NCBI GenBank assembly: GCA_022750155.1
Contig: JAKIWG010000002.1
Coordinates: 20,947 to 84,946, forward strand
DNA from: Thermoplasmata archaeon
Lineage (GTDB): Archaea; Thermoplasmatota; Thermoplasmata; Lutacidiplasmatales; UBA184
Direction of reading: 5' to 3'
DNA length: 64,000 bases
Each line of letters opens with the position of its first letter. The first letter of the stretch is position 1. Positions 7,946 through 60,874 of this stretch are shown one piece after another. The notes beneath the pieces are model-generated. The model was not told the origin of the DNA. It worked only from the letters and a program-made list of their open reading frames with translations, and searched no databases. A program made the position numbers and the translations under genes.

Positions 7946-7972
7946 CACAGGTATCATGCGGCCGGGAGGCGG

Positions 7973-9127: not shown

Positions 9128-9140
9128 AGCGGGAGGTCGG

Positions 9141-9542: not shown

Positions 9543-9554
9543 TTCGGCGCGTGG

Positions 9555-32532: not shown

Positions 32533-32624
32533 CGTCAGGGCCGCCGACGCGGAACGCGTATAAGAGATTGGGTACCGCTCGAAGTTCCTGACGGAAACAG
32601 GTAAGAGGGTCCGGGCCATGGCGC

Positions 32625-32720: not shown

Positions 32721-32758
32721 GTGCGACCTAACAGCTCCCGCCCGCGCCTGGCGGGGTC

Positions 32759-36548: not shown

Positions 36549-39500
36549 GTGTCCCGAGAACCCCCTCGTCGGATCGGTTGGCCACGGTGGGGCCCTGTCG
36601 CCATCGTGCTGATCTTTCTCCTGAGCGTCCTCCCGATGCCCTCCGGTTTCCTGGCCAACGGCCCGGGGCTCACGCCGGCGCGCGAGCACCCGGTCGCAGC
36701 CCCCGCCGCGCCCCGTGCCGGATCCCACGTCCTGTCTCACCCGTTGCCGAACCAGCCCGCCCCTGTGTTCCACGGACTCGCCCAGGGCGCGTACCGGTCG
36801 AACGGCGTCACTCCCGCGTCCTGGGGCGGTTCCAAGTTGCCCCCGGGGGCCCCGATCCCCAGGAACCTCCTCTCGCATCCGGCCAACTGGTCGGACCCCA
36901 ACGGCTCCGGCATCAACTGGACGGCGCTCGCCAAGTTCTGCTACGGCGTCTGGCCGACCGGGGGCGGGCAGGCGCAGTACCTCGCCAACTGCTACGGCCA
37001 CGATGAGCCGGGCCTCGATCCCTACTCGAACCTGCCGGGCAGCGGCGGCAACGTCAGCTGGAACATCACGCTCCCGACGGGCCGCAACGACACCGAGATC
37101 CAGTCGGCCCTCTACTCCGCGATCTGGTTCGGAATGGTGCTCACGGACCCCTACGCATGGATGGACCAATGTTTCCTGGAGCTCCAGTTCTACCCGGACA
37201 GCAGCTGGGGGCTGTCGCAGGGCAGCGCCGGGAACTGGGTGGGGGCGGCCGTCGCCTGGCAGATTGAAGCCGCCACCGGCGCCGAGGACCCGTGCTTCTA
37301 CCAGCAGCTCACCGTGCAGGGCTCCTCGAACTATTTCAACATGTTCGGCGGCGACAACATCCGCGTCACGATGACGGGCTGGATCGGATCCCCGTACGGC
37401 GAGAACCTCACCATCACCGATGTCACCGGCGGCGGCACGTCGTTCGTCAACCTGTACAACTCGGCATTGTACTACCCCCTCGACCCGTCCTACCTCACGT
37501 CCAGCTTCCCCAACGCCCTGCAGTGGACCCCGGGAGGCGAGCTGCCCGTTTCCTTCGCGTTCGAGACGGGTCACTCCAACTCGAACTTCCCGAACACCAA
37601 CCAGTACGGGGGGTGCAGCGCCGGCCCTCCCCCGCCGACCCCCACGAATCCGTCGGTGCCCTGCCCGAGCTACGACCCCGGCAGCTGGGCGAACGATACC
37701 GTCACCCCGTGGCTGATCCAGCCTCCCGTCTTCTTCAACGCCACCGCCCGGGAGACCGCGACGCAGGTGGGGTTCACCCAGGATTTCGCCGCGATCCTGT
37801 TCATCGACGGGATCAGCAACGGCGCGTGCCTCGGCCGCGACGGATCGGCCTGGTGCTCGTACCCCTGGTACAGCTTCTCGTGCCTTTGGAATGCCTTCGA
37901 GTTCGGCGCCACCGACTACCCTGGCGTGACCCGGGACTTCGGGAAGTACAACGAGTACCCCCGCCCGTTCCTCACCGATAGCGCGAATCTGGGCTACTAC
38001 CCCCCGGGGAACTTTTCGGTCCCCGGGTGCGCGAGCCCCACCTATTCTATCGTAATCGGAGCCCTCGGCGGGAGCGGTGCCGGTACCGCCCGCCTCCTCG
38101 GCACGGGGACGACCACCTCGTCGAACGTCACCGGTCTCACGGTCGGCCAGTATGCGCTGAGTGCCGAACCGAGCCCGGGGTATCGGCTGATCCACTGGGT
38201 CACCACCGGAGGGGCGAGCGTCGACTTCACGAACAGTCCGTGGGCTTCCCTCAACGTGACCGGCAATGGGAGCGTCACGGCCGTGTTCGGCCCGATCACC
38301 GCCGGCACCGTGACGATCCATTTCGTCGACGAACGGGGATGGGGTTGGCAGGCCATCGGTCCGGGCCTGCTCTACGACCCGGTCCCCTCGACCAAGAGCC
38401 TCGGGGTCAACGGGTCGATCACCCTCTTGCCTGGAGTCTATTCGATCCTCGGGTACGCGAAACCCGGATTCAACTTCACCGCTTGGCAGTCCAACAACTC
38501 CGGAGCCAGCGTGGCGGCCGATGGGTTCCCGTACACCTGGCTGGTGGTGACGGGATCGACGAGCGTCGTCCGGATCAATGTCACGTTCACCCCGAGCTTC
38601 GCGAACGCATCGGTCACGATCTCCTGGTTCGGGGCCACCGGGGCGGTCACGTTCAACGGCCAGTCGGTAGGGAACGGCGCCGGGTTCAGCCTCGCGGTCG
38701 GCACGTACCCCCTCGTGGCCACCCCCTCGAGCGGAAACGCGGTCGGGTACATCAGCGCGGGCGGCATCGGCATCGTGCTCGACCAGCACGACGCGACGAA
38801 TGTCACGGTGGAGGCGGGGTTCGTTTCGATCGTGGTCATGTTCGACCTGGCCGCGACGGTCACCGTCGCCACCGCCGGAGGGGATGGCAACGTGTCGATC
38901 GACGGTCTCCCGTTCGCCGGAAACCATTCGGCGGTGGTCCTGCCCGCGATCTTCGCCCCGGGGGAGTTCACCCTCTACGCCACCGAACCCACCGGGAAGG
39001 CGTTCTCCCGCTGGACGGTCGCCAACCCGGCGGACCTGTGGGTCGTCAATCCCAACGCCGCCGTCACCGCGATCTGGGTCAACACCTCGTCGACCCTCAC
39101 CGCGCATTACGTCCCCGCGGCCTCGCTCTATCCGGTCGTGATCCGGATCTCGCCCGCGGGGTCGGGTTCCGTCTCCCTCGACGGAGGGCCATGGACCACC
39201 ACCTCCCCGTGGTTTCTCAATCTCTCGGCCGGCGCCCACCTCTTGGAGGTCACCCCCGGGTCGATGTACGTCGCGTCCTGGACCTCCGCGGGGGGGCTCA
39301 CCCATTCGGCGCCGCCCTCCGTGTATCCCGTGGGCGCCCAGCTCCTAGGCGTCGGCACCAAGCCGGGCTGGCTGAATGGCACGTTCACCCGGCCATCGGG
39401 GGTGTACTTCCCAGTGACGATCGTCGCCGAAGACGCGACCGGGAAGGTCAAGATCGACGGGGTCGCCCGCCCCAACGGGGGGACGATCGTCCTCCTCCCG

Positions 39501-40865
39501 GGCAGCCACACCGTCACGGCGAGTTTCCCGGCTCCGCTCGCCTTCGTCGGGTTCGAGGCGACCTCCAACCTGACGTTGGTGACGTCCCCCTTCGCGACGA
39601 CGGTGAACGTGCAGGGCGCCGGCACCGTCTACGCGATCTCGACCTGGCCGATCGCGCTCAGCGTGAAGGCCAACGTGACCGGGGGCCGCGCGCCGCTCCC
39701 CGTCTCGTTCTCGAGCGGCGTGGCGGGAGCGAGGGCTCCCTGGACGATCACGTGGAACTTCAATGACGGATCGACCCCGGTGATCGGCGCGTTCGCGAAC
39801 CACACGTTCGCCGTCGCCGGATTCTACAACGTGACGACCACGGTGATGGATTCGGTCGGCGGGAGCGGTTCGATGGTGACGCTGATCAAGGTCCTCCCTC
39901 CGGCCCTCACCGCGCTCGCCGTCGCCAACGTCACGAGCGGGATCGCCCCCCTCACCGTCTCGTTCGTCGGGCACGGGTCGAGCGGCGTCCCGCCCTACAC
40001 CTACAACTGGACCTTCGGAGATGGTAGCGCGAAGGTCATCCAGCAGAACGCCACCCACACGTTCACCAATCCCGGGACGTTCACCGTCAACTTCTACCTC
40101 AATGACAGCGCGCGCCAGCACGTGGTCTTCCCCATGATGATCGTGGCCAGCTCCTCGCTGACCGCTTCGATCGCGGCGTCCCCTCTCTCCGGGGCGGCGC
40201 CGCTCGTCGTGAAATTCCAGGGGGTCGCCCACAAGGGGACCTCGCCGTACACGTACGCCTGGGCGTTCGGGGACGGCGTCGACGCGTCGGGCGCGAACGT
40301 GAGCTACACCTACCGGGTCGCCGGTACCTACAACGTCTCCTTACTGGTCAACGACCGGTTCGGGAGCCTCGCGAGCTCTAGCGTCGAAGTGAACGTCACC
40401 CCGCAGTTCTTCCCGCTCTCGGTCTCGATCGTCGAGTCTTCGGGGAACGTCACGCTCGGAAAATCCGTGACGATCCGCGCCGATGCCACCGGCGGCACCC
40501 CGCCGTACACCTACCTATGGGGAGGCCTGCCCCCGGGTTGTACCGGGGCCGGCGTCTCCTTCACGTGCACCCCGACGGCCAACGGCACCTACCAGCCGAA
40601 CGTCACGGTGGGCGACAGCGCTCCGGGGGACTCGGCCTCGACCACGGTCCAGCTCATCGTCTACAAGTCGCCTTCCACGGGACCCGGCGGCCCGGGCTCC
40701 ACCCCCACCTCGATCACGAGCGCGTCGTCCCTTGCGTGGGTCCCCTATGTGGCGATCGCCGTCCTGATCGGAGCGGGCGTCGTCGCGTTCGCGATGTACC
40801 GGCGACGGCCCCCCTCCTCGGCCGAGGGGGGCTCCGACGACGCGCCCGACCCGGGCGCAGAGTAG
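36549..40865 (+). CDS. Giant surface glycoprotein (1438 aa) with C-terminal PKD repeats and a C-terminal TM anchor
   Basis: Signal/TM at the N-terminus (VAIVLIFLLSVL), very dense N-x-S/T sequons, and four PKD-like repeats (..PLTVSF..G..PYTY.W.FGDGS). It ends with the TM helix AWVPYVAIAVLIGAGVVAFAMY plus RRRP. Confidence 0.75.
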   Translation: MSREPPRRIGWPRWGPVAIVLIFLLSVLPMPSGFLANGPGLTPAREHPVAAPAAPRAGSHVLSHPLPNQPAPVFHGLAQGAYRSNGVTPASWGGSKLPPGAPIPRNLLSHPANWSDPNGSGINWTALAKFCYGVWPTGGGQAQYLANCYGHDEPGLDPYSNLPGSGGNVSWNITLPTGRNDTEIQSALYSAIWFGMVLTDPYAWMDQCFLELQFYPDSSWGLSQGSAGNWVGAAVAWQIEAATGAEDPCFYQQLTVQGSSNYFNMFGGDNIRVTMTGWIGSPYGENLTITDVTGGGTSFVNLYNSALYYPLDPSYLTSSFPNALQWTPGGELPVSFAFETGHSNSNFPNTNQYGGCSAGPPPPTPTNPSVPCPSYDPGSWANDTVTPWLIQPPVFFNATARETATQVGFTQDFAAILFIDGISNGACLGRDGSAWCSYPWYSFSCLWNAFEFGATDYPGVTRDFGKYNEYPRPFLTDSANLGYYPPGNFSVPGCASPTYSIVIGALGGSGAGTARLLGTGTTTSSNVTGLTVGQYALSAEPSPGYRLIHWVTTGGASVDFTNSPWASLNVTGNGSVTAVFGPITAGTVTIHFVDERGWGWQAIGPGLLYDPVPSTKSLGVNGSITLLPGVYSILGYAKPGFNFTAWQSNNSGASVAADGFPYTWLVVTGSTSVVRINVTFTPSFANASVTISWFGATGAVTFNGQSVGNGAGFSLAVGTYPLVATPSSGNAVGYISAGGIGIVLDQHDATNVTVEAGFVSIVVMFDLAATVTVATAGGDGNVSIDGLPFAGNHSAVVLPAIFAPGEFTLYATEPTGKAFSRWTVANPADLWVVNPNAAVTAIWVNTSSTLTAHYVPAASLYPVVIRISPAGSGSVSLDGGPWTTTSPWFLNLSAGAHLLEVTPGSMYVASWTSAGGLTHSAPPSVYPVGAQLLGVGTKPGWLNGTFTRPSGVYFPVTIVAEDATGKVKIDGVARPNGGTIVLLPGSHTVTASFPAPLAFVGFEATSNLTLVTSPFATTVNVQGAGTVYAISTWPIALSVKANVTGGRAPLPVSFSSGVAGARAPWTITWNFNDGSTPVIGAFANHTFAVAGFYNVTTTVMDSVGGSGSMVTLIKVLPPALTALAVANVTSGIAPLTVSFVGHGSSGVPPYTYNWTFGDGSAKVIQQNATHTFTNPGTFTVNFYLNDSARQHVVFPMMIVASSSLTASIAASPLSGAAPLVVKFQGVAHKGTSPYTYAWAFGDGVDASGANVSYTYRVAGTYNVSLLVNDRFGSLASSSVEVNVTPQFFPLSVSIVESSGNVTLGKSVTIRADATGGTPPYTYLWGGLPPGCTGAGVSFTCTPTANGTYQPNVTVGDSAPGDSASTTVQLIVYKSPSTGPGGPGSTPTSITSASSLAWVPYVAIAVLIGAGVVAFAMYRRRPPSSAEGGSDDAPDPGAE

Positions 40866-40872
40866 CGACGGT

Positions 40873-41556
40873 TCAGTCGGAATCGTCGCGGCGCTCGCGC
40901 CGCCTTGGGGGTCCCCGGCGGTCGCTGAACCCACCACGGCTCGGAGGGCGGCCGGAGCTTCGGAACCCGCCGGGTCGCCCTCGACCGTAGGAGGAGAATC
41001 CCCGGCTGCCGCCCCGCTCCCCGCGTCCGCCATCCGGCGAGCGTCGGGGGAGCGTGAAGCGGTTACCGCAGGAGTCGCAGATCCCCGTCACGCCCCCATC
41101 TTCGTTGGTCTCGAATCGCAGGGGTCCGCCGCACTCCCGGCACGGTCGGGCCCGCTCAGCCCCTCCGCCGCGGCGGTCGCCGCCCCGGTCGTCGTCGCGC
41201 GGACGGGCCCGGAACGCCGGTCGCTCCTCGCGCTCGGTGACCTCTTCCGGGGCGCCCGTGCGCTGGAGCTTGAAGACGAAAGTACGGTCGCAGACGTCAC
41301 ATTCCGCGGAGATCGCCCCGCGTCCCTTGAGCGAGAGCTCCGTCGCGGAGCCGCACTCCGGGCACTTGACCTCGATCGAGGGGGGCATGGAACCCTCCTC
41401 CGCGGAGACCGCGGGAGCCTCGGCCACCAGGGGGGGGCCGCCGGCGGAAAGGATCAGGATGGTGTGCTGGCAGCCCGAGCAGGTTCCCGTCTGCATCTGG
41501 GCGGCGGTGGGCACGAACTCGACTTGGGCGCCGCATTCCGGGCAACTCTTCTCCAT
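40873..41556 (-). CDS. Zinc-ribbon (x3) protein with an RGG/RG-rich disordered C-terminal tail
   Basis: CPECG...CSGC, CPECG...CDVC and CRECG...CDSCG ribbons, then GGRGERGGSRGFSSYGRGRPGGFRSSGRPPSRGGFSDRRG. Confidence 0.55.
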   Translation of the reverse strand: MEKSCPECGAQVEFVPTAAQMQTGTCSGCQHTILILSAGGPPLVAEAPAVSAEEGSMPPSIEVKCPECGSATELSLKGRGAISAECDVCDRTFVFKLQRTGAPEEVTEREERPAFRARPRDDDRGGDRRGGGAERARPCRECGGPLRFETNEDGGVTGICDSCGNRFTLPRRSPDGGRGERGGSRGFSSYGRGRPGGFRSSGRPPSRGGFSDRRGPPRRRERRDDSD

Positions 41557-41659
41557 GGGGGACCGGTAACCTGCGACCCGCGCCCCTACATTAGGAGCGC
41601 GCTCCGGCGACGGGGTCGCGGTTTTCCCGGGGACGTCCCGTGCTATCCCGGGCCTCGCC

Positions 41660-42553
41660 TCACGCCTCGAGCTCGAAAACCGCGTGGAGGATCCCGAACT
41701 CCTCCTCCATTCGGCGTCGCAGTTCGCGGACGACGGTCATGGAGGCCTGGACGCTCTGCTCGCTGACCCGGACGTGCGCGGTCATGCAGACCAGCGTCGG
41801 ACACACCGCCCAGACGTGCACGTCGTGCACCTCCTGGACCGAAGGGACCGCGCGCACGCTGTCCATGATCCGGGCGACGGAAAGATGCCTCGGCACCGAC
41901 TCGGTCAGCACCTCCCAGGTCCCGCGGAACAGGGGGAACGACTCGTAGACCAGGATGCCGGCGATCACGAGGGCGGCCCCGGCGTCGGCCGAGAGGTATC
42001 CGGGTCGAAGTAGCAGGACTAACCCGTCGGCGATGAGCGCGCCGGTGATCAGCAGGTCGCTCGCGAGGTGGACGATCACGCTGCGGAGGTTGAGGTCCTG
42101 GACCCTTCGCGGGACCCGGCCGAGGACCGCGAGGCTGACCGCCCGCAGCCCGAGGGTCGGGGCGGCGGCGAACAGGATCCACCACGGGTCTACGGCCCCG
42201 GCGAAGGAGGTGCCGGAACGCAACGCGACGACGGCGGTGAAGGCGAACACGAGGCCGGTTCCCAGCACGAGCGCCCCGTTGAAGAATCCCGCGAACACCT
42301 CGAAACGATGGGCCCCGAACGTGAGCTCGCGGTCGGCCCCCCGCTCGGTCGCGGCGAGGGCGGAGTAGGAGACCGCGAACGCCAGCAGGTCGGGGAGGTT
42401 GTGGACGGCGTCGACGGTCAGGGAGAGGCTGCGCGAGAACAGCGCCCCGATGGATTCGACCACCAGGATCCCGAAGGAGAGGACCACCGCGAGCCGGAGC
42501 CCGCGGATCACGCTCTCCTCGGCTTCGTCCTCGCCGTGGGTCAGCCGAGCCAC
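41660..42553 (-). CDS. Cation diffusion facilitator (CDF) family transporter
   Basis: 6 TM helices, HxxxD in TM helices, and a C-terminal cytoplasmic domain HDVHVWAV. Confidence 0.8.
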   Translation of the reverse strand: MARLTHGEDEAEESVIRGLRLAVVLSFGILVVESIGALFSRSLSLTVDAVHNLPDLLAFAVSYSALAATERGADRELTFGAHRFEVFAGFFNGALVLGTGLVFAFTAVVALRSGTSFAGAVDPWWILFAAAPTLGLRAVSLAVLGRVPRRVQDLNLRSVIVHLASDLLITGALIADGLVLLLRPGYLSADAGAALVIAGILVYESFPLFRGTWEVLTESVPRHLSVARIMDSVRAVPSVQEVHDVHVWAVCPTLVCMTAHVRVSEQSVQASMTVVRELRRRMEEEFGILHAVFELEA

Positions 42554-42995
42554 TCGCTCTCCCCGGGGAATCGACGGGTTCGTACGGGGCAGATCCGCCG
42601 GGCCGGGCGCCCCATCCTAGGGGGTCGCGATGCGCGCCCCCGCGACGCAGCGAGTTCCCTCATCAGATGGGGCGCACCTGGGGCTCTGGCCACGGGCTCC
42701 GGAAGTCGGGCGCCACCTTGAGGATGCCCCCGACCCCTCGGAGGCCGGGTGAATCCGGACCAAAGGGCGCTCGACCCTTCGATGAGGCAGGGGCATCCTG
42801 CGGGAGGGCCCCACGGCGCCATCGAGATCGCGACCCTCGGAGGGTCGGGCTCCGGCGGACGCACCGTTCGACCTGCCGTGATGCCCCCGATTCCAATCCC
42901 CGCCGAATCTCGGGGCCCGCATCGCGGCCGCCACAGAACGAAGGAAGAGGTTCGGCGGCGGGGGAGCGATCGCCCTCCCGCCGTCGGGCGAGCGC

Positions 42996-43952
42996 CTACG
43001 CGATGGTGATCGATTGGAGCGTAGCACCGTTCCCTAGCGTGGCCATGTTGACGGTCGCGACCGAGGTCCCGGCCCACGGATGAAGGAGGTTCAGCTGGTC
43101 GGCGAACGCATACGTGTAGAGGTACAGGCTGATGACCAACACGTAGTGGTGGCTCTTGACCATGTACGACCCGTTGGTCCACGACGTGAACGGGGTGGCG
43201 CCGTTCCATGTGAACGCGTTGAATCCGACCGCGTTGTAGCCATACTGGAAGGCGTAGCCGGAGGAACCGGTGGTGTTCGAGCAGGTGGGGGTCCCGTAGT
43301 TGTAGCAGTCGGTGTAGTTCTGCCAGTAGGAGTCGTTGTACGCGTACAACGAGCTCCCGTTGGTGGAGTACCAGGTGTTGTTGTTCAGGTCCTGCAGGTA
43401 CAGGTACATCGAGAAGTCGAGGTAGGCTCCGTCCTGGCAATAGCCGTACGAGTACGAGTTCAACGACGGATTGAAGTTCACGCTCTTCGCCGGGCAGCCA
43501 CCGGTCGTGAACGAATCGAGCGTCGCGAGGTTGAGGGTCCAGCTCGAGCTGATCGAGTGGTTCCCGTTCTTGGAGACCGTGAAGGGAATGGCGATCAGGA
43601 GCCCGCTCTGCGCCGAGGCGGAGGAGGAGCCCCCGACGTAGCTAAGCGACTTGCCGCAGGCCGACGCCGAGGCGGAGTCGACGGCGGAGAGGCCGCCGGT
43701 CGTCGGGCTCCACTTCGGGACGTTGACCTTCGACTTGCCGCACCCGGAGGTAGACGAGGACGAGCTCGGCTGGCTCACGGTGTGCTTGTAGGCGGGCGTC
43801 ATGACCTTGAGGGCATGCACGGCCCCGGCGCCGGCCGGGGCGAGTACCATCAGCAGGGTGACGGCGGCAGCGAACCCGGTGGTTCCGACGGCCATCGCTC
43901 GACCCGACCAAGAGCCCTGGGTTCGTCGCGTGTCTTTCCCGTACTCTCCCAT
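42996..43952 (-). CDS. Secreted Cys-, Tyr- and Asn-rich protein, hypothetical
   Basis: Signal peptide MAVGTTGFAAAVTLLMVLAPAGAGA, paired cysteines and many N-glycosylation sequons. Confidence 0.5.
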   Translation of the reverse strand: MGEYGKDTRRTQGSWSGRAMAVGTTGFAAAVTLLMVLAPAGAGAVHALKVMTPAYKHTVSQPSSSSSTSGCGKSKVNVPKWSPTTGGLSAVDSASASACGKSLSYVGGSSSASAQSGLLIAIPFTVSKNGNHSISSSWTLNLATLDSFTTGGCPAKSVNFNPSLNSYSYGYCQDGAYLDFSMYLYLQDLNNNTWYSTNGSSLYAYNDSYWQNYTDCYNYGTPTCSNTTGSSGYAFQYGYNAVGFNAFTWNGATPFTSWTNGSYMVKSHHYVLVISLYLYTYAFADQLNLLHPWAGTSVATVNMATLGNGATLQSITIA

Positions 43953-44091
43953 ATGTATTCTTTCCGGCCTCGAGGTCGACTGCGGCCATCGGCCGAAGGC
44001 CCTTGAGGCGAAGCGGCGAACCGAGTGGGGGTATTTAGCCCTGGGACCAGTCGACTCGGACCGCAGCGGACCCGTGAGCCGGTTCCGTCGG

Positions 44092-45033
44092 TCAAGGTCT
44101 CCCCGTCGATCGCCGTACCGAGGACCGAACGGGGCGGCGAAATGCCCAGCGAAGGAACAGGTGGCTTCCGCCCCTGCGGACCCCGACGAGCGAACCCCAA
44201 CGCGGGTGATCCGGGGCAAATATCCGTCCGGCGACGAGGCCCGGCCGTCCGAGGGGATCCGTGCGTCCCGCGACCTGGGGGGCCAGCGTGAGAAACAGCT
44301 CGTCCAGCAGCTCCTCGGCGAAAAAGTCCCCCATGAGGTGGGGTCCGCCCTCCACCAGAACGAGCCCCCGGATACCGGTCGCCCTGACGGCGCCGAGCAC
44401 CGCGGAGGCTGGAATCCGACCGGAGCGCTGCACGGGCGCGACCTCGACCGACGGGAGATCCTCCGCCCTTCCCAATTTCCTTGCCCCCGAGGTGGTCGTT
44501 ACGATGAGCACGGGGGCTTCACCGCTCGCAAAGACGGGGAGTCGAAGGTCGAGCTCCCCGCTGGACGACACGAACACGTTGAGGGGAACGGGAGGCTTTC
44601 CCGCGCGCCGCCGGAGCTCGTCGTACTCCCAGGCCAACTTCGGATAGACGTGGGAGGCGCTCCAGATGTGCCGCGGGACGGCGCGAAGTGTGCCGGCCCC
44701 GACGACCACCGCGTCTGCCGAGGCGCGAAGGATTCCCATCAGGATCCGGTCCCGCGGGTCGAACCCCGTGATCTCGCCGCCGCTCGATCGCCCGGGCCCC
44801 AGGAGGGCGGTGACACCGTCGAGGGTGGTGGCGAAGTTGGCGATGACGAATGCCGGGGAGCCACTCTTTCGGAGACGCAGGGGGCCGTACACCTCGGAGA
44901 GCCGTCGGGGCAGGTCGACGAGCGGACCTCTCGTGTGATCGAAGAGAAGCTCGAGTCGGGCGAGGCGGGTCAATGGACACCGTTCCGAGGAGTGGGTCGA
45001 TTCGGCCGGCGAGTGCGCCGGTGTTGAGCACAT
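44092..45033 (-). CDS. RibD C-terminal domain / dihydrofolate-reductase-like reductase (candidate for an archaeal riboflavin pathway pyrimidine reductase)
   Basis: DHFR-like fold: ...FVIANFATTLDGV... and GG..L...F..ELLDEL.L..AP. Confidence 0.6.
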   Translation of the reverse strand: MCSTPAHSPAESTHSSERCPLTRLARLELLFDHTRGPLVDLPRRLSEVYGPLRLRKSGSPAFVIANFATTLDGVTALLGPGRSSGGEITGFDPRDRILMGILRASADAVVVGAGTLRAVPRHIWSASHVYPKLAWEYDELRRRAGKPPVPLNVFVSSSGELDLRLPVFASGEAPVLIVTTTSGARKLGRAEDLPSVEVAPVQRSGRIPASAVLGAVRATGIRGLVLVEGGPHLMGDFFAEELLDELFLTLAPQVAGRTDPLGRPGLVAGRIFAPDHPRWGSLVGVRRGGSHLFLRWAFRRPVRSSVRRSTGRP

Positions 45034-45352
45034 CGGGTCATTCGAAGAGCGTCTGGGGAAGTGGCCCGGCCGTATTACGGCAGGGCTCCCAGTTCAGCCC
45101 CTTCCGTAGCCCGGAATGACCGGCGCCTCCCCCGTCGCGTAACCCGTGAGCGGGCGTCCGGCTCGACGGGGCGACGCGGCGGCCGACTCTGGATGACCGA
45201 CACCTTCCCCCGCGTTACAGCGTCCGCGCGATCGGGTCGCCCTGCGCCGTACCACGCGCGCGGTCGGATCGCACCTAGCGCGCGAGGAATCCGGTCGGGG
45301 TGGGAACGCAGCGAATGTCGAGCAGCCATTATGTACGTCGACCGGCTGGTCG

Positions 45353-45820
45353 ATGCCCATGAAGGGTCCGCCAGGCTGGGCGTACAAGGCCTTAGGTATC
45401 CTCACGGGAGTGACGTTGCTCCTCCTCGTAACCCAGTACCTGCTCGGCCTTTGGACCGCTGCATATGCGCCGGCCACTTTCACCAGCGACACGACGTTTC
45501 CATCCCTCGACTGGCACTACAATATCGGGTTCATCCTCGGCCTCCTCTCGATCGCGGTGATCATCGTCGCCGCGCTCAGCCGACAGGTTCGCCTCATCGT
45601 ACCGGCCGTGGTCCTCTTCGTGGCGGTGTTGCTTGCGGGGATGTTCGGTTCCCGATTCGTGGGAACCACTCCCAACGACCCGCGATTCGCTTTCGCGATG
45701 GGCGTGATGTTCCTGGTGGCCTTCGGAGCCGCGATGGGACTCGCGGGTCAGCTCGCCCGGAGGCGCTGGCCTTCGTCGGGTCCAACGTCCCCCGCCGGGG
45801 CCCCGGTCCCATCCAGTTAG
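45353..45820 (+). CDS. Hypothetical 4-TM membrane protein
   Basis: Four hydrophobic helices and no junk composition. Confidence 0.45.
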   Translation: MPMKGPPGWAYKALGILTGVTLLLLVTQYLLGLWTAAYAPATFTSDTTFPSLDWHYNIGFILGLLSIAVIIVAALSRQVRLIVPAVVLFVAVLLAGMFGSRFVGTTPNDPRFAFAMGVMFLVAFGAAMGLAGQLARRRWPSSGPTSPAGAPVPSS

Positions 45821-46128
45821 TCCCCTAGTGAGGGGCGTCGTTCACATTCGGCGTGCAAACCCTGGTTCGTCCCGGGTTCGGGCATCCCCCGGAGCTTCTC
45901 TGTCGGCCCGGCTTGAGTGAAGACGTAACGAGGAACCCCCGCGGCAACCCGTTCGGGGTGATCGACCGAAAGGACTCGAGGGTGGAAAGCGTGCCCGGCA
46001 GAGGCGAGCGGTCCCCGATTTGGGGGGTGGTACCGCCGGATCTCGAGCGCTGCTCGAATCCGGTAGGGGGAACACTCCTCGCCGCGACGCAGCCACTACT
46101 TTTAAGGCCCCAAGCCCGTGCCGCGTCC

Positions 46129-46911
46129 ATGCGACTGGTCAGCTTGGGCCTACTGGGAACCATCGGCGTGCTCCTCCTCGCCATACTGCCCGCAGCGGGC
46201 GCCGCCGCACCCCTCAGCGGTGTGGTCACGACGTGCAGCTCGACCTGGAGCTGCCAGTTCACCTTCAATACCTCGGCGGGCACGGGCTGGGCCCACGGCG
46301 TCGGGAACGCGGGCTACGGCAGGGCCGGAGTGATTTCTCTCCAGCTCCCGGGCGAGTCGAAGGCCTCGTACAATCTGAGCTACAACACCTGGATCGGCAG
46401 CCTGATCGGCACCTACACCTATTGGACCGAGGGGCAGTTCTTCGGCACCGACGTGAACACGGGGTACGTCGTCTTCGGCAATACCAACACGAACTACACG
46501 ATCACCTGCCACGGCCACAGCGGCCACGGCGGGGGATGCACCTACACGTACACCACGGACAATGGCACGATCGTCGTCCGCTTCACGCACGCCGAGCAGA
46601 CCATGACCTCTCTGTCCTGCTCTCCGACCAGCATCAACGTGGCCGGCAAGACGACCTGCACCGCCACCGTGACGAACCTCTGGAACAGCACGAACTACCC
46701 CGCGGGGAAGATTCACTTCGCGAGTTCGGGCGGAGGAAAGTTCTCGAACATGGGGACGTGTACTCTCTCCTCCAACGGCACCTGCACGTTCACTTGGCAT
46801 CCGTCCGATAATACCTGCAGCTTCTCGACCCTCTCTGCGACCTACGGAGGGACCGCCAAGTTCTACCACAGCAGCGGATCGACGCTCGAGGGCGTCACCG
46901 GCGGTTGCTAG
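46129..46911 (+). CDS. Secreted protein with an Ig-like (Big) domain, hypothetical
   Basis: Signal peptide MRLVSLGLLGTIGVLLLAILPAAGAA, Cys pairs and N-glycosylation sequons; the internal ATG is taken as the start. Confidence 0.5.
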   Translation: MRLVSLGLLGTIGVLLLAILPAAGAAAPLSGVVTTCSSTWSCQFTFNTSAGTGWAHGVGNAGYGRAGVISLQLPGESKASYNLSYNTWIGSLIGTYTYWTEGQFFGTDVNTGYVVFGNTNTNYTITCHGHSGHGGGCTYTYTTDNGTIVVRFTHAEQTMTSLSCSPTSINVAGKTTCTATVTNLWNSTNYPAGKIHFASSGGGKFSNMGTCTLSSNGTCTFTWHPSDNTCSFSTLSATYGGTAKFYHSSGSTLEGVTGGC

Positions 46912-47059
46912 GTACCCCATGGTCGCCCCCGCCTCCCCGTGAGGGGGGGGCCAGCCACGCCAAGCTTGCCACAGGGCCGCGCGCCCCTCGTCGCCGGTTC
47001 CTTCGTCCTCAGGCGACGTGCGTCGCTGGAACCTCGGCCGAGGTCGATTGCCTCGCCGA

Positions 47060-47107
47060 GAAAGAAGGGGGACGCCCGTGCCGGGAATCGCCCCAAATCT
47101 GAGACTC
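47060..47107. repeat. Degenerate direct repeat of the 3' half of tRNA-Arg (putative att remnant)
   Basis: 47060-47107 aligns at about 80% identity to 49576-49621, the acceptor 3' strand, T-arm and anticodon-stem 3' strand of the tRNA (shared GAAAG..ACGCCCGTGC.GGGA.T.G..CCCA..TCTGAG.CTC). Confidence 0.5.
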
Positions 47108-47130
47108 GAGGGTTCGTTCTCGAGGACGAT

Positions 47131-47357
47131 TCAATCCTCCACCTCGCGTGGCCGATCCGCGACGGCGGCCCTTCCGTGGGCGATGAACCCGATCAAGTCC
47201 TTCGACGACTTTGGTCGATGTCGGCGAACTACCACTTCGCCCTCGCGCACCTCCCAAGCGAGGACGTCCCCCTCCTGGATGCCGACCTCATCTCGGACGG
47301 CCCTGGGGGCCACAGTAAGGTTTCCCTTGGAGACTTCGGACTCGCTGAGAACGGTGA
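47131..47357 (-). pseudogene. AbrB/SpoVT-domain (antitoxin-like) ORF with no canonical start; probably decayed
   Basis: Manual translation gives a full swapped-hairpin domain (VSKGNLTVAPRAVRDEVGIQEGDVLAWEVREGEVVVRR), but no in-frame ATG, GTG or TTG covers the N-terminal half. The track calls only the C-terminal 60 aa. Confidence 0.4.
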
Positions 47358-47509
47358 ACTACAGGAGGCCAACAATGAGTCCTGATCGTCACCAGGTCGC
47401 GCGGTTCTAACAGAGGGAAACGCCCGTGATGGGATTCCCTCCAATTCTAGGGTGTCGGGATTCGTTCATTAGAGACCGAGAGTGCGGATCACGGCCCCGG
47501 CCGCCGAAT

Positions 47510-47911
47510 TCAGATGGTGGTGACCCCCGGCAATCCGGCCAAGGCCGCATCACTGGTGTAGAGTTCGGCGCCAAAGCGGCGCGCAGTGGCGAGGATCTGT
47601 GCATCGGAGAGGTGCAGCCGGTGCGCGAGACTGAAATCCGCGGCCTCGAGGGCGATATCTCGGTCTATCGCAACCACCCGTGTTCGGTCTAAGGCGGCTA
47701 CGTCCCGAAGTGCGGTTTCCTCACCGAGCGCGCCTTTCACCCGCTTGTAGACCTCACACAAAACGACGACCGAGGTGATGATCGCCTGGACGTCCACCCG
47801 ATCAATCACCCGGTTGTAGTCAGGGGCCTTCGGCCCCCCCATGAACCGCTCGATCCACCCATAGCTGTCGATGCAGATGGGGTGCGCCGGTGCCCTATCA
47901 GAATCGGTCAT
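47510..47911 (-). CDS. vapC: PIN-domain toxin VapC
   Basis: ICIDSYGWIERF N-terminus with D...E...D...D acidic residues; 133 aa; overlaps vapB by 14 nt. Confidence 0.8.
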   Translation of the reverse strand: MTDSDRAPAHPICIDSYGWIERFMGGPKAPDYNRVIDRVDVQAIITSVVVLCEVYKRVKGALGEETALRDVAALDRTRVVAIDRDIALEAADFSLAHRLHLSDAQILATARRFGAELYTSDAALAGLPGVTTI

Positions 47912-48107
47912 TCTTGTCCCGGAGTTCCTTGAGCTCCACGCGCGCGTGCATCCCCTTTGTCTTCTCGAAAGGTGCGATCGGCACCAAGTGGAGCACCCCG
48001 TGCTTGACGATGACGGCGAGTTTGTCTCCGGGCCGAATGTGCTGTTCCCTACGTACTCGTTCGGGGATGACCACCTGGAACTTCGGCGAGACCGTGACCG
48101 CCTCCAT
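47898..48107 (-). CDS. vapB: AbrB/SpoVT-type antitoxin VapB
   Basis: SPKFQVVIPERVRREQHIRPGDKLAVIVKHGVLHLVPI swapped-hairpin domain. Confidence 0.75.
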   Translation of the reverse strand: MEAVTVSPKFQVVIPERVRREQHIRPGDKLAVIVKHGVLHLVPIAPFEKTKGMHARVELKELRDKNDRF

Positions 48108-48354
48108 GGATGCCGTATGAGTGGCATGACAGGCAGATGGATGATGATTTCGTCGTACGTATGGTCCATCGACAGCCTTGGCGAATTCCTGCCCGACCGC
48201 TTCGAAGTTCGTCCGAGGGAGGCCACTTCAGCCTGGGGAACCCATCTAGGAGGTGGGGGGCATTCACGAATCGGGCACATTGTCTACCCGGGGCAGCTGT
48301 TCCGCTATCGTTTCATCGTCTCAGCCGGAGGGTGAGTCGACCCCTTCCGGAGCC

Positions 48355-48828
48355 CTACCCGAGTGAGCTGACGCGTGCTGGACTACGATGACTAGAGCCG
48401 GCAGAGCCTGCCCCGGGACCTGGAACATAGGAAATGTTGAGCTTAGGGCCCAATAGGCGGATGGGCCCGGTCCCAGAGTCGGGGTGAGAATTCCACCTCG
48501 AGCCGAAGTGGATCAGTGTGAGAAGGACGGGAAGCACATCGGCCCCCTTCTCCGCCAATTGCCATCTCGTGTAGGTCCGAGTTCGCTCCGCTCGGATGAT
48601 GAAGCCGCTTCGCTCGAGCTCGGAAAGCCGCATGGCGAGTATTCGTTTGCTCATCCCGGGGGTCGTTCGAAGCAGCTGGTTGAATCGCTGTGCCCGACCG
48701 AGAGCGATGTTCATCAGAACGAGCAGGGCCCACTTCCGACCTAGTACTCCGAGGCTGGCTTGTACGGGATAGGCCGAGAACTTGAGCTCGATGAAAACAT
48801 GCTGCCGGCGGCGAGATGCTGCGACCAA
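48355..48828 (-). CDS. HxlR-family winged-helix transcriptional regulator
   Basis: GRKWALLVL...RFNQL...PGMSKRILAMRLSELERSGFI motif; the local GC content is about 55%. Confidence 0.7.
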   Translation of the reverse strand: MVAASRRRQHVFIELKFSAYPVQASLGVLGRKWALLVLMNIALGRAQRFNQLLRTTPGMSKRILAMRLSELERSGFIIRAERTRTYTRWQLAEKGADVLPVLLTLIHFGSRWNSHPDSGTGPIRLLGPKLNISYVPGPGAGSAGSSHRSPARVSSLG

Positions 48829-48903
48829 TTCCGACCTACTTCGATTCGCCTACCGACACTTATAGGCCGAGGCTGATAAGGGACTCCAACGGAAGGGGAC
48901 CCA

Positions 48904-49359
48904 ATGGTCTATCTGAAGGATGAAGGAAGCACGTTCGACGCTCCAATCGATGTCGTTTGGAAGTACGTTTTCGGAGGCGAGGGCCACGATGGCGCTCACA
49001 AGACGACGCGGAACCCCAAGTTCGAGAAAGTTTCGGAGATAACGTTCATCTACGGCTCCGAACGGCTCTTACGGGGTAAGTGGGCACCTGATCGAATGCG
49101 GATTTCCATGTTCCCCCCCGTCTCGGTGGTCACGGAATGGCTCGAGGGGGTGCTCGCGGGATCGAAGCTCGTCTACGTTTACTCCCCGCATGGGGACAAG
49201 ACTCGAATCGATGTGTACGGCGAGTTTACGTCAATGACGCTCCCGACGAGCGAGGTCGAAGCGGCTGCTCGAGACTTTCTGCAGAGCGAGTACGACGCCG
49301 ACGCTCCCGCGATCCGGGCTTTCCTGTCAAAGGAGAAGGGAACGGCCCGAAAGTCTTAG
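48904..49359 (+). CDS. SRPBCC (Bet v1/polyketide-cyclase-like) domain protein, hypothetical
   Basis: A 151-aa alpha/beta pattern, divergent from the HxlR regulator; low-GC islet. Confidence 0.45.
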   Translation: MVYLKDEGSTFDAPIDVVWKYVFGGEGHDGAHKTTRNPKFEKVSEITFIYGSERLLRGKWAPDRMRISMFPPVSVVTEWLEGVLAGSKLVYVYSPHGDKTRIDVYGEFTSMTLPTSEVEAAARDFLQSEYDADAPAIRAFLSKEKGTARKS

Positions 49360-49585
49360 CCCAGGCTTGAAGCCGGTGGCTTCCCTCAGGGCGAGTTCTT
49401 CGTGAGCCCACCGTTTCGCCGACAGGAGGGTGAATCTTTGCGGGACGATGGCATGGTCTAACCCCCCCCACAGTAGGAGAGCCGGGGCCGAAGGTCGCTG
49501 ATCGACTCCACCGGGGTCCGAATCGGCCCGAGGTGAAGTCGGATCTTCGAATGAGCTGGTGGGGCTTCGGGCGGGGAAAGGGGAA

Positions 49586-49694
49586 CGCCCGTGCTGGGAT
49601 TTGAACCCAGGTCTGAGGCTCCGCAGGCCTCTAGGATAATCCAGTGTAGCGGGGCGGGAGCGAATCCCGCACCCCGTAGCTACCCCACACGGGC
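49586..49694 (-). tRNA. tRNA-Arg (anticodon GCG) with a ~37-nt insertion (putative non-canonical intron) between the D-stem and anticodon stem
   Basis: Acceptor GCCCGTG/CACGGGC with discriminator G; T-arm CTGGG-TTCAAAT-CCCAG; anticodon arm GAGGC-CUGCGGA-GCCUC. The D-stem is GGGG/TCCT with two G-U pairs, and the D-loop region holds an extra hairpin (GTAGC...GGGG..GGG-ATTCGCT-CCC.CCCC...GCTAC). Confidence 0.6.
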
Positions 49695-49841: not shown

Positions 49842-51155
49842 ATGGAGGAGGGGAGCCTGTCGGACCCCTGGCCTCGGCTGAAGGGGTTGCCGATGGGCAC
49901 CACTGTCGAGCTCGCGGGCGCCGACGGGCGGACATGGCAGGGCACCCTGGTGCCCTCGCACGAGCTTTCGGGGGAGCGCATCGTACAGCTGAAGCTGGAC
50001 TCCGGATACAACGTCGGGATCCGGGTCCATCCGGCCGACCGTCTGGTCGTGCTCGAACGACCCGCTCGCGCCAACGGGGAGCCATCCGCATCCGGTGCTT
50101 CGCCGGCGCCGGAGATCTTGCCGGGTCACGTAGCGCTGCTCACTACCGGTGGGACGATTGCGTCCCGGGTGGACTACCGGACTGGCGGGGTGCGTCCGGT
50201 CCGTGAGGAGTCTGAGATCCTATCGTTCTACCCCGACCTCAGCCGCGACGGCCCCGTCCACGTCATTCCGGTGTTCGACCGCCTGAGCGAGGAGATCTCC
50301 CCACCCGATTGGGCGACCCTCGCCGCCCACGTGGCGGAGGCGTTCCGTCGGGGGGCCCACGGCGTGGTCATCGCGCACGGCACGGACACCCTGGCCTTCA
50401 CGTCGGCCGCCCTGGCCTTCCAGCTCCGCAGGCTTCCGGGGCCGGTCGTGCTGGTTGGGGCCCAGCGTTCTCCGGACCGCCCCTCTTCCGACGGGCCGGG
50501 CAATCTGCAGGCCGCGGTCCGGCTCGCGCGCCATACCACGCTGGGGGAAGTGGTCGTGCTCATGCACGCGGGGCTTTCCGACGATCGCTACGCGATTCAT
50601 CGTGGAACCCGCGTTCGCAAGATGCATTCGAGCCGTCGCGATGCGTTCCAGAGCCGCAACGGACCGCCGCTCGGATGGGTGGGGGCGGAAGGGGTCGTCC
50701 TCGACCAGCCGTACCGGTCGGCCGAGGCCGGGGAGGTCACCGTGGAGCCGCTCGAGTCCCGGGGCGGCATCCTCTGGTCGTTCCCCGGCCTCGATGCGGC
50801 GTCGGCGGCCCGTTTCGTCGAGCCCCTGCGGGGGGTCGTGCTCGCGGGAACCGGACTCGGCCACGTCAGCTCGATCCACCTCCCGTGGATCCGCGAGGCG
50901 GTGAAGCGCGGGGTCGTGGTGGCGATGACGACACAGTGTCTGGAGGGTCCTGCCGATCCGTTCGTGTATGCGACGGGCAGGGAGCTACTACGTGCGGGCG
51001 TCCTCTACCTCGACGACCTGCTTCCGGAAACGGCGTATGCGAAGATGCTCTGGGCGCTCGCGGCGTCGACCGACCCCGTCGAGGTCCGACGCCTGATGAA
51101 GCTCGACCTCGCCGGGGAGTTCTCGCCGCGGCACAGCGTGGGGGGCCCCGCGTGA
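49842..51155 (+). CDS. gatD: Glu-tRNA(Gln) amidotransferase subunit D
   Basis: Asparaginase-like TTGGTIAS threonine motif and the archaeal GatD N-terminal domain. Confidence 0.9.
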   Translation: MEEGSLSDPWPRLKGLPMGTTVELAGADGRTWQGTLVPSHELSGERIVQLKLDSGYNVGIRVHPADRLVVLERPARANGEPSASGASPAPEILPGHVALLTTGGTIASRVDYRTGGVRPVREESEILSFYPDLSRDGPVHVIPVFDRLSEEISPPDWATLAAHVAEAFRRGAHGVVIAHGTDTLAFTSAALAFQLRRLPGPVVLVGAQRSPDRPSSDGPGNLQAAVRLARHTTLGEVVVLMHAGLSDDRYAIHRGTRVRKMHSSRRDAFQSRNGPPLGWVGAEGVVLDQPYRSAEAGEVTVEPLESRGGILWSFPGLDAASAARFVEPLRGVVLAGTGLGHVSSIHLPWIREAVKRGVVVAMTTQCLEGPADPFVYATGRELLRAGVLYLDDLLPETAYAKMLWALAASTDPVEVRRLMKLDLAGEFSPRHSVGGPA

Positions 51156-58617: not shown

Positions 58618-60341
58618 ACCGCCTCGGGGCCGTTCTCGTATACCGCGACGAAAGGGGGGGCGTCGAACCAGGCGCTCGCGTTCGCGCTGAGGGGGAGCGC
58701 AGGAGCGCTCGGGTCGAGGGCGACCCCGGTATCTCGCATGGTCTCGTCGACCGCGACGGCGTTGATGGGCAGCAGCTTCGGTAGCGTGTGCGGCGCGTTC
58801 GCGCCTCGTAATTCGTCCATCGCCGCCTTAGGATCCTTTCCCACGAAGAGGGCCGGGGTCGAGTCCCACGTCGCCCGATTCCCGTCAAATCCAAAGATCA
58901 TCGAACTCAGCCGATGGTCCGAAGCGACGACGGCTCCGGCCGGGATCGCCGACCCGACCCACATCCAGAGCGCGGCGTCCTGCGAGGTCAGTCCCTCCTG
59001 GAACCCTCCGAAATCCGATGGGGGTGGGTACACGATCGCGGCGTTGGCGGCCAGCAGGACCACGAGCCCGAGCGAGCCGGCGATCAGTGCCTGCCGGCCG
59101 GAGCGATCGCCCCACCGGGCCACGAGGCGGCCGCCGCCCACGGCGATGAGGAGGCCGACGGGGATGAGCAGGTACTCCGGGTGCCGGGAGGGGAGGATCT
59201 CCGGATTGTTCGTCGAAAGCGCGAACAGGGCGGAGAGCCCGAGCGCGAGGAGCCAGGCGATCGCCAACGGGCCGATGCGGCTCACGGTGACCAGGCGACG
59301 TGTCCCCGAGGCGAGCGGGATGCTCACGAGCAGGGGTGCGAAGAAGACCACGGCGGAAGGCACGGTCGTCTGTGCGGTGGCCGGAAGGGGGACCACGATG
59401 AGGAGCCCCACGCCGAGGAACAATCCGCTCAGGATCACGACCGCATCGCGGAGCAAGCTGCGGTCGCTGGGGAATCCTACGCGCGCCCGGGTCGAGCCCG
59501 CGGACCTTCGGCGCCTCCACCGAATGAGCTGGGCGAGGACGACCATCCCCACGACCGCTCCGCCACCCAGCGCGACCACCACGGCTCCCGCGGGGAGTCC
59601 GTGGGACCCCTCGGAGAGGATCGGAAGGAACGGCGCGGCGTAGGCGCTCCAGTAGGCCAACATCCCGAGGACGAACGCGGTGAGGAAGGCTAGCTCGCGG
59701 GCGGGGAACCTCGTGCTCCACAGCCCCGGCTTCCACAGCTCGAGCAGGACGAACGACCCGAGGGCGCTCGCCAGGAAGAAGTAGCTCGACAGGTGGTGGG
59801 TGACCACGAGCGACGCCGCGGTCAGGGCGAGGGGGAGGTACCAGCGCCGGTCGCGCCGCCCCTCGACGAACATCCAGAGCGCCCCGATCACGAGGAAGTC
59901 CCCGAGGGCGAGGGGCGCCGGATGGGCGAGGGAGAACATCCTCGGCATGAAGACGGAGGCGAACCCGGCGCCCAGGATCGCGACCGAGTCGTTCGGGAAG
60001 AGGCGGCGGAACAGCAGGAACAACGGCAGGACGGACAGGACGGACAGGACCGGGACGATCGTCGTCAACGCGGTGAGCGGGTCGACGCCGAACGCCTGGG
60101 AGCCGGTGGCGGAGAGCAGGAAGATCCCCGGAAAATTCGGGTAGGCGAAGCCCCACCCGAGGTACGACGCACCGGTCGGCACGTGGCCCGTGGAGACGAG
60201 GGCCGATGTCAGATGGTAGTACTCCCCGGTGTCCGAGCCGAAGATCGCGAAGGATAGGCGGGGCTCGAGCGAGAGGAAGACGAGGAGCAGGCCGAGCGAG
60301 AGGAGCCAGCAGAGATGGCCCCGGTCCATCGTCCGCTCCAT
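58581..60341 (-). CDS. Large polytopic membrane protein, GT-C-type glycosyltransferase-like (not AglB: no WWDYG motif)
   Basis: About 13 TM helices and a C-terminal soluble domain. Confidence 0.45.
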   Translation of the reverse strand: MERTMDRGHLCWLLSLGLLLVFLSLEPRLSFAIFGSDTGEYYHLTSALVSTGHVPTGASYLGWGFAYPNFPGIFLLSATGSQAFGVDPLTALTTIVPVLSVLSVLPLFLLFRRLFPNDSVAILGAGFASVFMPRMFSLAHPAPLALGDFLVIGALWMFVEGRRDRRWYLPLALTAASLVVTHHLSSYFFLASALGSFVLLELWKPGLWSTRFPARELAFLTAFVLGMLAYWSAYAAPFLPILSEGSHGLPAGAVVVALGGGAVVGMVVLAQLIRWRRRRSAGSTRARVGFPSDRSLLRDAVVILSGLFLGVGLLIVVPLPATAQTTVPSAVVFFAPLLVSIPLASGTRRLVTVSRIGPLAIAWLLALGLSALFALSTNNPEILPSRHPEYLLIPVGLLIAVGGGRLVARWGDRSGRQALIAGSLGLVVLLAANAAIVYPPPSDFGGFQEGLTSQDAALWMWVGSAIPAGAVVASDHRLSSMIFGFDGNRATWDSTPALFVGKDPKAAMDELRGANAPHTLPKLLPINAVAVDETMRDTGVALDPSAPALPLSANASAWFDAPPFVAVYENGPEAVYWVDAPLIPTS

Positions 60342-60469
60342 CGCGTCCCTCCCGTGCGGGAGCGGCGTCCCGAGCTATAATCGGGGCGCCCCGGAGCATC
60401 GCGGAGGAGTTCGCGCAAAATTGCGAGCCATACTCATAAATAGGAGGGCCAAGTGGGGCGCCAATCGAG

Positions 60470-60874
60470 GTGATTCCGATTCCTTCGTCGGCCAAGGGGA
60501 AGAAGCCGAAACCGTCGGCGAAGAAACCTCATCCCGCGACGAAGGCCAAGCCCTCGCGACCCGCGGCCCGGCCCCCGGCCCCGCACTCTACGAAGGCACC
60601 GGCCAAGCCCTCGAAACCCTCCCCCAAACCCTCCAAGCCCGTGGGGAAGCCGACCGGCGGTTCGGCCCCCGCCAAGCCCCCCGCGGCGCCGGTCGGTCCC
60701 CCGCGGAGCCCCGACGCGCGGCGCCACGTGCTCTCGCTCTCCTTCCTGCGGGACGGGGACGAGTTCATGGCGCGGCTCGAGACGGATGCCGGCCAGATCA
60801 CCGAGCTGAAGAACCGTTCCCTCGACCAGCTGCTGACGCTCGTCGCCAACGAGCTCGAAGACCTGCTCGAGTGA
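60470..60874 (+). CDS. Lys/Pro/Ala-rich basic protein with a C-terminal folded domain; leaderless GTG start
   Basis: A KP-rich tail (KKPKPSAKKPHPATKAKPSRP...) with frequent AAG/AAA codons, atypical for random GC-rich sequence. A TATA-like CATAAATAGG lies about 28 nt upstream of the GTG. Confidence 0.5.
   Translation: MIPIPSSAKGKKPKPSAKKPHPATKAKPSRPAARPPAPHSTKAPAKPSKPSPKPSKPVGKPTGGSAPAKPPAAPVGPPRSPDARRHVLSLSFLRDGDEFMARLETDAGQITELKNRSLDQLLTLVANELEDLLE

Follow-up and report, generated by a model that had tools for sequence, protein, structure and literature searches.

Archaeal integrative elements of the pNOB8 type (class II, the lambda paradigm) target the 3′ part of a tRNA gene, duplicate the attachment (att) core as direct repeats and leave beside the tRNA an intact integrase gene whose product carries the motif R..YxxR..Y (She et al. 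2002, 2004, via Badel et al. 2021, PMC8371274). Elements of the SSV1 type (class I), known also from 'gene capture', likewise duplicate the tRNA 3′ part, and their captured remnants decay in place; the SSV attP lies inside the integrase gene, which is split on integration, and the integrase motif is KxxR (PMC8371274). Here we analyze a 64,000-nucleotide stretch of a Thermoplasmata archaeon contig (JAKIWG010000002.1), referred to as the window, in which the interval 47073–49585 probably houses a pair of small, worn integrative elements from a single family, which entered a tRNA-Arg(GCG) gene in succession at its 3′ end. A preliminary description based on the DNA letters had recognized here the footprint of a tRNA-targeted integrative element, a reading supported by the repeats, the base composition, empty sites and other islets with the same core in relatives, a conserved arm next to the core, and an integrase at the same site elsewhere. 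The evidence supports a more specific assignment to a known class, as an eroded tandem pair of the pNOB8/lambda type and not of the SSV type. SSV1 itself integrates in a Sulfolobus tRNA-Arg with an att site of ~44 bp, and so uses the same type of target tRNA.

Partial tRNA copies at the far end of an element have also been described in the Thermococcaceae and other prokaryotes (van der Gulik et al. 2023, PMC9897764). Those elements are ~9–23 kb long and mostly intact, whereas at the present locus two tandem units remain, heavily reduced to 0.33 and 2.1 kb. A survey of genomic islands in acidophilic archaea (BMC Genomics 2025, PMC12302457) describes a similar location at tRNA 3′ ends, a GC content below that of the host and a cargo of VapBC, RelBE or MazEF systems; in contrast, it makes no mention of tRNA-Arg (0 occurrences), and we noticed in it no description of the integrase family discussed below or of soil Lutacidiplasmatales-like hosts. 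The phenomenon has therefore already been described (PMC9897764, PMC12302457, PMC8371274), and the present locus is a further case of a known kind of scar.

The interval is delimited and subdivided by three copies of the tRNA end, all in one orientation and separating independent units. The copies (A and B being designated W_A and W_B where they are compared with related loci) and the tRNA gene are as follows:

47065–47129: distal att copy A, with the core at 47073–47090 (CGCCCGTGCCGGGAATCG), a tRNA-like extension to 47107 and an element-side arm to 47129 that includes GGTTCGT
47414–47479: internal att copy B, with the core at 47421–47438 (CGCCCGTGATGGGATTCC) and an element-side arm to 47479, at the junction of unit 1 and unit 2
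49578–49621: proximal att copy, made up of the 3′ part of the tRNA together with 8 nt of trailer, with the core at 49586–49603; the reference copy for the repeat families and alignments
49586–49694, minus strand: tRNA-Arg(GCG), its D-loop interrupted at about 49644–49678 by an intron-like insert of ~35 nt

The similarity of 47060–47107 to 49576–49621, put at about 80% in the preliminary description, is reproduced by exact local alignment: 47065–47107 and 49578–49621 are identical in 35 of 44 columns (80%; score 24.5), and 37 matches are obtained over the originally proposed spans. In 200 shuffles the maximum score averaged 11.6 ± 1.2 and never exceeded 16, and nothing else in the window, on either strand, scored above 13.5. 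The third copy, which had been overlooked, aligns with the tRNA end at 47414–47436 with a score of 19.0. The foreign, repeat-bounded islet of ~2.5 kb that had been proposed is thus real, but this internal copy divides it into two tandem units. No further att copy was found by alignment to the left of 47065.

Copies A and B align with one another over 47066–47129 (score 24.5), and they have in common the core, a 1-nt deletion in the T-loop and ~40 nt of the arm. The sequences that follow them diverge beyond ~65 nt, and the unit interiors are unrelated (score 15, compared with 13.3 ± 1.4 for shuffles). The combination of a common arm and deletion with unrelated interiors fits two successive elements of one family rather than a local duplication. 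Elements of other genomes have the same arm architecture. A GGATTCGT motif lies ~20 nt past the core on the element side in W_A, W_B and five related loci (L012, L020, L027, L054 and L055); the arm of copy A, which is alignable with that of copy B, carries this type of motif as it occurs in those five. The arm of copy B is ~70% alignable, by eye, with the L020 arm, and the two can be aligned over ~30 nt although the cargo of the two loci is unrelated. Locus labels L008–L061 denote contigs or loci of related genomes throughout.

The base composition changes at the same boundaries. The segment 47108–49578 has a GC content of 60.5%, compared with 69.1% for the whole window and 70% for the right flank, and is the lowest-GC 2.47-kb stretch in the window, with no other stretch of that length below 66.1%; in 400-nt windows the GC content falls as low as 57.5%. 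The dip between the repeats is therefore genuine, but its size is about 70% to 60% and not 68% to 55% as first estimated. The GC content at third codon positions (GC3) of the five islet genes is 0.665–0.786, whereas that of 47 host open reading frames (ORFs) is 0.876 ± 0.040, and the genes directly to the left of copy A are host-like (0.79–0.84). Neither the low GC nor the low GC3 extends beyond the repeats, and it is only between these that the GC and codon statistics, proposed earlier as a comparison with the flanks, differ sharply from them.

Related genomes show what the site looks like without these units. The host is an archaeon, in which gatD (GatD_N domain; 49842–51155) is followed by a GatE-like ORF, and the nearest gatD loci belong to metagenome-assembled genomes (MAGs) of soil Thermoplasmata, including Candidatus Lutacidiplasma silvani, with a GatD identity of at most 68%. 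The ancestral arrangement, which recurs among them, places ABC-transporter genes first, followed by the gene for a giant secreted protein, then tRNA-Arg and gatD. In L019, L026 and L028 the giant gene and the tRNA are separated by 61–271 nt, and these sites are therefore empty. The synteny comparison suggested in the preliminary description accordingly came out for the earlier reading: none of the 46 gatD-anchored loci has homologs of the islet genes within 10 kb of this tRNA, and some of the sites are unoccupied.

Other relatives carry islets of their own at the same tRNA. Six of them (L012, with two copies, L020, L021, L024, L027 and L033) have tRNA-end repeats 0.9–3.9 kb downstream of the tRNA that are exact or near-exact over a core of ~18 nt, CGCCCGTGCTGGGATTCG, and in L012 (both copies), L020, L021 and L024 the repeat ends at the same T-loop position. 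These islets contain different cargo and none of the islet genes of the window. Toxin–antitoxin assignments considered for this cargo are mostly unsupported by profiles: a PIN domain in L024 is the only significant match, ParE (E = 0.0035) falls under the Pfam cutoff, AbiEii is matched with E = 0.028, and the L020 gene pair and two small genes of L058 have no profile match.

Two further features of the site were observed in the relatives. In L012, from Ca. Lutacidiplasma silvani, two near-exact tRNA-end repeats delimit two units at 5000–9750, and past the outer repeat lie more fragmented copies of the same two-gene cassette (a winged helix–turn–helix protein and a 273-aa protein), an arrangement that suggests a longer array. 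Four of the 35 tRNA-bearing gatD-anchored contigs (L008, L010, L013 and L031) end within ~420 nt of the tRNA 3′ end, L008 inside an integrase gene, which is consistent with assembly breaks at strain-variable elements.

The recombinase associated with this site is encoded in relatives. A search of the 64-kb window with a hidden Markov model (HMM) of the integrase family against the six-frame translation gave a best E-value of 7, and tblastn found nothing in the islet, so the window contains a remnant and not a complete member. The family was reached by a metagenome scan for the core–arm junction, which led to L053, where a 483-aa ORF starts ~55 nt from the core and matches the phrog_1 integrase in PHROGs with E = 1.3e-8. 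Because this protein has no Pfam match and a PDB sequence search returned only noise, its identification depended on PHROGs, the conserved motif and the predicted fold. The family (~450 aa) has 268 matches at E ≤ 0.001, its listed members being proteins P0121–P0240; many of the named ones come from Thermoplasmata MAGs, and no Pfam domain is on record for them. Residues R159, K203, Y287xxR290, H317 and Y325 are invariant. The AlphaFold (AF2) model has a mean predicted local distance difference test (pLDDT) score of 88, and all 43 PDB chains retrieved at E ≤ 0.05 are tyrosine recombinases, among them XerA, IntI, Cre, lambda Int and the Tn1549 integrase.

In L058 and L059 the gene order is gatE, gatD, the interrupted tRNA-Arg(GCG), a 62-nt gap, the integrase, two small genes and the giant secreted protein, and the element has a GC content of 62.9% compared with 71.1% for the flank. 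In L061 the integrase follows the same tRNA and is itself followed by no less than 11 kb of element genes, one of them coding for a D5-type primase-helicase. L008 has the same tRNA–integrase junction, cut by the contig end, with a truncated integrase. Reading the mid-size ORFs next to the tRNA in relatives for recombinases had revealed none, and a later HMM scan of them recovered only this truncated L008 copy. Other family members adjoin tRNA-Arg(CCT) (L060) or a tRNA(CAT) with an apparent intron (L056); Prim-Pol primase and resolvase genes are present in both of these elements, and that of L056 encodes a D5-type domain and a DNA methylase as well.

Judged by its R..YxxR..Y motif, the family fits the intact-gene pNOB8/lambda type. 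It differs from the described pNOB8-type elements in lacking a Pfam match, it could be assigned to none of the 17 families named in PMC8371274, and the copy in the window has no integrase. Integration of the SSV type was rejected: there are no int(N) or int(C) fragments in the window, and the related integrases are intact beside the tRNA, with YxxR and not KxxR.

The two units contain five recognizable genes, listed here from left to right:

47131–47313, minus strand: decayed AbrB/SpoVT-like antitoxin gene (Pfam MazE_antitoxin, E = 1.4e-5, profile positions 13–46 only)
47510–47911, minus strand: vapC, a PIN-domain toxin of 133 aa (Pfam PIN, E = 3e-12, 2–115 of 120 profile positions; GC3 0.746)
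47898–48107, minus strand: vapB, an AbrB/MazE-type antitoxin of 69 aa (Pfam MazE_antitoxin, E = 9e-8; NCBIfam AbrB domain, E = 8.9e-11)
48355–48828, minus strand: HxlR-family transcription regulator (Pfam HxlR, E = 1.3e-15), with an uncertain start codon and divergent from the next gene
48904–49359, plus strand: protein of 151 aa, predicted to fold like SRPBCC proteins (START/Bet v 1-like helix grip)

All five gene calls of the preliminary description (vapB and vapC, the decayed AbrB-like gene, HxlR and SRPBCC) were upheld, the last by predicted fold and the others by profiles. The decayed AbrB-like gene is the sole gene of unit 1, the presumably older remnant of ~330 bp; its frame runs on upstream through the first strand without an ATG, GTG or TTG there, and no toxin partner follows it at the locus. 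In unit 2, vapB lies upstream of vapC with a 14-nt overlap, and the predicted products, a PIN toxin behind a small DNA-binding antitoxin in one operon, correspond to a type II VapBC toxin–antitoxin system. The 151-aa protein had no match in Pfam, NCBIfam or PDB sequence searches. Its AF2 model (pLDDT 90.7) has the topology β, α, α, six β-strands and a long C-terminal helix, and a Foldseek search of the PDB returned TTHA0849 as the top match (TM 0.78), together with START, Bet v 1, ARO/CYC, PYL and CoxG proteins. The model thus places this protein in the SRPBCC (START/Bet v 1) superfamily, a membership detectable by predicted fold only. The same protein is on record, identical, as L3K19_01300 of a Thermoplasmata MAG, although look-ups by exact sequence had returned nothing for it or for GatD.

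We propose that each element entered by site-specific recombination of its attP with the chromosomal tRNA-Arg(GCG) 3′ end. The att core of ~18 nt would comprise the discriminator, the 3′ strands of the acceptor and T-stem, the start of the T-loop and a few purine-rich trailer bases. The recombinase would be a pNOB8/lambda-type tyrosine integrase of ~450 aa, from a class in which integration leaves the gene unbroken; in relatives this integrase is encoded ~60 nt downstream of the same tRNA. Every integration would have rebuilt the tRNA with element-borne sequence and pushed the former tRNA end outward, generating an array of copy A, unit 1, copy B, unit 2 and the tRNA. The present tRNA has the minority T-loop allele TTCAAAT and copies A and B resemble the majority form TTCGAAT, a pattern compatible with element sequence having taken the place of the tRNA end. 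Later internal deletions would have removed the integrase and most of the cargo, leaving the decayed AbrB-like gene in unit 1 (0.33 kb), and the apparently intact vapBC pair, presumably kept by addiction, and the HxlR–SRPBCC module in unit 2 (2.1 kb).

Several observations weigh against two eroded elements of this kind. The core copies of the window are degenerate, 14/18 and 15/18 identical to the tRNA core, and the original boundaries are therefore approximate. Sequence comparison shows the trailer-side arm of the window to be unlike the arms of integrase-bearing elements. Neither an integrase nor a fragment of one is present in the window, and the link to the integrase family comes from relatives with a GatD identity of at most 68%. 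A distal att copy was not found in L058, and a free or viral form was not found in IMG/VR in scans with the 151-aa protein, the tRNA-side core and the core–arm junction. Finally, the HxlR–SRPBCC module is somewhat GC-poor in every host examined (58% GC in the window, matching 57–60% in lower-GC hosts), so part of the GC dip is intrinsic to the cargo. This last property is what one would expect if the islet were native DNA with gene-specific low GC, its repeats being chance similarities or tRNA-pseudogene debris. Such an origin is extremely improbable: the repeat scores lie far beyond those of the shuffles and of the rest of the window, the islet genes are missing within 10 kb of the tRNA in all 46 related loci compared, and both empty and integrase-occupied sites exist. 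A single integration, after which the att region was duplicated locally in tandem or by unequal crossing-over to give copies A and B, would account for the closer similarity of the two copies to each other than to the tRNA and for their shared 1-nt deletion and arm. It is nonetheless highly unlikely, since the sequence after the two copies is unrelated beyond ~65 nt and the arm is also common to elements of other genomes, which makes it a feature of the family's attP rather than the product of local copying; a simple tandem duplication was rejected because of the unrelated interiors.

An integrase that was absent from the outset has more to recommend it, although we regard it as unlikely. The units would then be small att-bounded cassettes, each with cargo, core and conserved arm, accreted by an integrase acting in trans from a larger resident element of the same family, in the manner of integron cassettes or cis-mobilizable elements. 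Very small islets without an integrase but with exact core repeats do occur (L020, 863 bp; L021, 1.2 kb; L012, 1.5 kb), the element-side arm is conserved over islets with unrelated cargo, multi-unit arrays are found in both L012 and the window, and large integrase-bearing elements are present in the same lineage. Streptococcus provides a bacterial parallel in the cis-mobilizable elements (CIMEs) found at the att sites of integrative and conjugative elements, which have the layout attL, unit, internal att, unit, attR, with units that lack a recombinase and for which mobilization in trans has been demonstrated. The array layout and the recombinase-free units are alike, but the CIMEs depend on another integrase, and mobilization in trans would be hypothetical here. 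Against trans-acting accretion, L058 has at this site a ~2-kb element consisting of an integrase and two small genes, and integrase loss from such an element would look no different; neither a free cassette nor a circular junction was found, nor an identical cassette at two different sites; and the trailer-side arms are not visibly conserved among the mini-islets in sequence comparison. In its general form, the proposal would be that soil Thermoplasmata run a cassette-accretion system at tRNA-Arg(GCG), in which a Pfam-invisible family of pNOB8-type integrases, carried by larger elements that also encode a primase, would act in trans to capture, stack and exchange integrase-free mini-cassettes (toxin–antitoxin or small regulatory modules with the 18-nt core and the conserved arm at their borders). 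The two units of the window would then be old cassettes and not complete elements that decayed; this, too, we consider unlikely. Two successive integrations followed by erosion remain the reading that we favor. That the element had lost its integrase, as stated earlier, is an inference from the lack of any remnant of one in the window; cassettes that never had an integrase are the less likely alternative.

The target gene has an unusual structure. It was confirmed as tRNA-Arg(GCG) on the minus strand, and its end coordinate had been placed correctly in the preliminary description, yet neither ARAGORN in default mode nor Rfam at the gathering threshold calls a tRNA in the window. When ~38 nt are removed from the D-loop region, ARAGORN calls tRNA-Arg(GCG), and it is the intron-like D-loop insert of ~35 nt that explains why the gene was missed. 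The acceptor and T arms are predicted to be intact, so that the islet has an intact tRNA at one end. The same interrupted tRNA is found upstream of gatD in 35 related loci. An alignment of 34 distinct sequences from relatives among the soil Thermoplasmata shows near-invariant exons and an insert that is conserved in position and variable in sequence. RNAalifold folds the insert into a conserved GUAGC/GCUAC helix and, beyond a 3-nt UAC bulge, an inner helix in which 6 pairs show compensatory changes. A bulge–helix–bulge has two 3-nt bulges and a 4-bp helix; here one clean UAC bulge lies between the conserved and the covarying helices, and a second bulge is not evident. From these features the insert can be read as a relaxed bulge–helix–bulge-like intron resembling the hBH/HBh′ form, with approximate splice sites. 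Only (αβ)2 and ε2 splicing endonucleases are known to cut non-canonical introns, and the Thermoplasmatales have the α′2 type (PMC5829648).

The tRNA(CAT) of L056, at about 9860–9985, looks similarly interrupted. In intron mode, ARAGORN additionally reported a tRNA-Trp with a 319-nt intron at 7071–7484 (plus strand) and a tRNA-Asn with a 986-nt intron at 59601–60680 (minus strand); long ORFs of high GC3 overlap the two calls, which are probably spurious.

The HxlR and SRPBCC genes constitute a 0.9-kb divergent module with a distribution of its own. DNA homology extends over 48414–49339, with 71–79% identity to loci in other Thermoplasmata. Among 260 homologs of the 151-aa protein, the best 120 are 74–88% identical to it, above the identity of GatD. 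Homologs of the pair occur at other, variable loci (L047 and L049–L052) among IS110 and other transposases and PIN/VapB pairs, and in MAG AcS5-58 the module lies on a different contig from that genome's own repeat-free tRNA site. A scan of viral contigs in IMG/VR with the 151-aa protein found nothing. As judged from these comparisons, this predicted regulator/ligand-binding module moves among soil Thermoplasmata, in which it is widespread and highly conserved.

The giant secreted protein gene of the window occupies 36549–40865, and of the 8.7 kb between it and the tRNA only the last 2.5 kb are foreign in composition and repeat-bounded. The remaining ~6.2 kb between the giant gene and copy A (40866–47065) contain roughly six genes, including those for a RibD_C protein, a membrane protein and an Ig-like secreted protein. 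This segment is syntenic with no relative, has a near host-like composition and contains no detectable att copy; the sole homolog of its membrane protein (45353–45820) lies inside the repeat-bounded islet of L012. The segment may represent an older, ameliorated insertion. Elsewhere in the window, a thiamine pyrophosphate (TPP) riboswitch (RF00059, 61.3 bits) at 32623–32731 on the plus strand is the sole Rfam match at the gathering threshold.

The present case leaves the understanding of how such elements work unchanged, and its importance is modest. It documents a recurrent insertion hotspot in Lutacidiplasmatales-like soil archaea, the tRNA-Arg(GCG) gene beside gatD, and links this hotspot to a large family of tyrosine integrases that is invisible to standard Pfam annotation. 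Because routine tRNA finders miss the target gene on account of its putative D-loop intron, islands at this site will be overlooked in the annotation of MAGs. The analysis also identifies the HxlR–SRPBCC pair as mobile cargo in this lineage.

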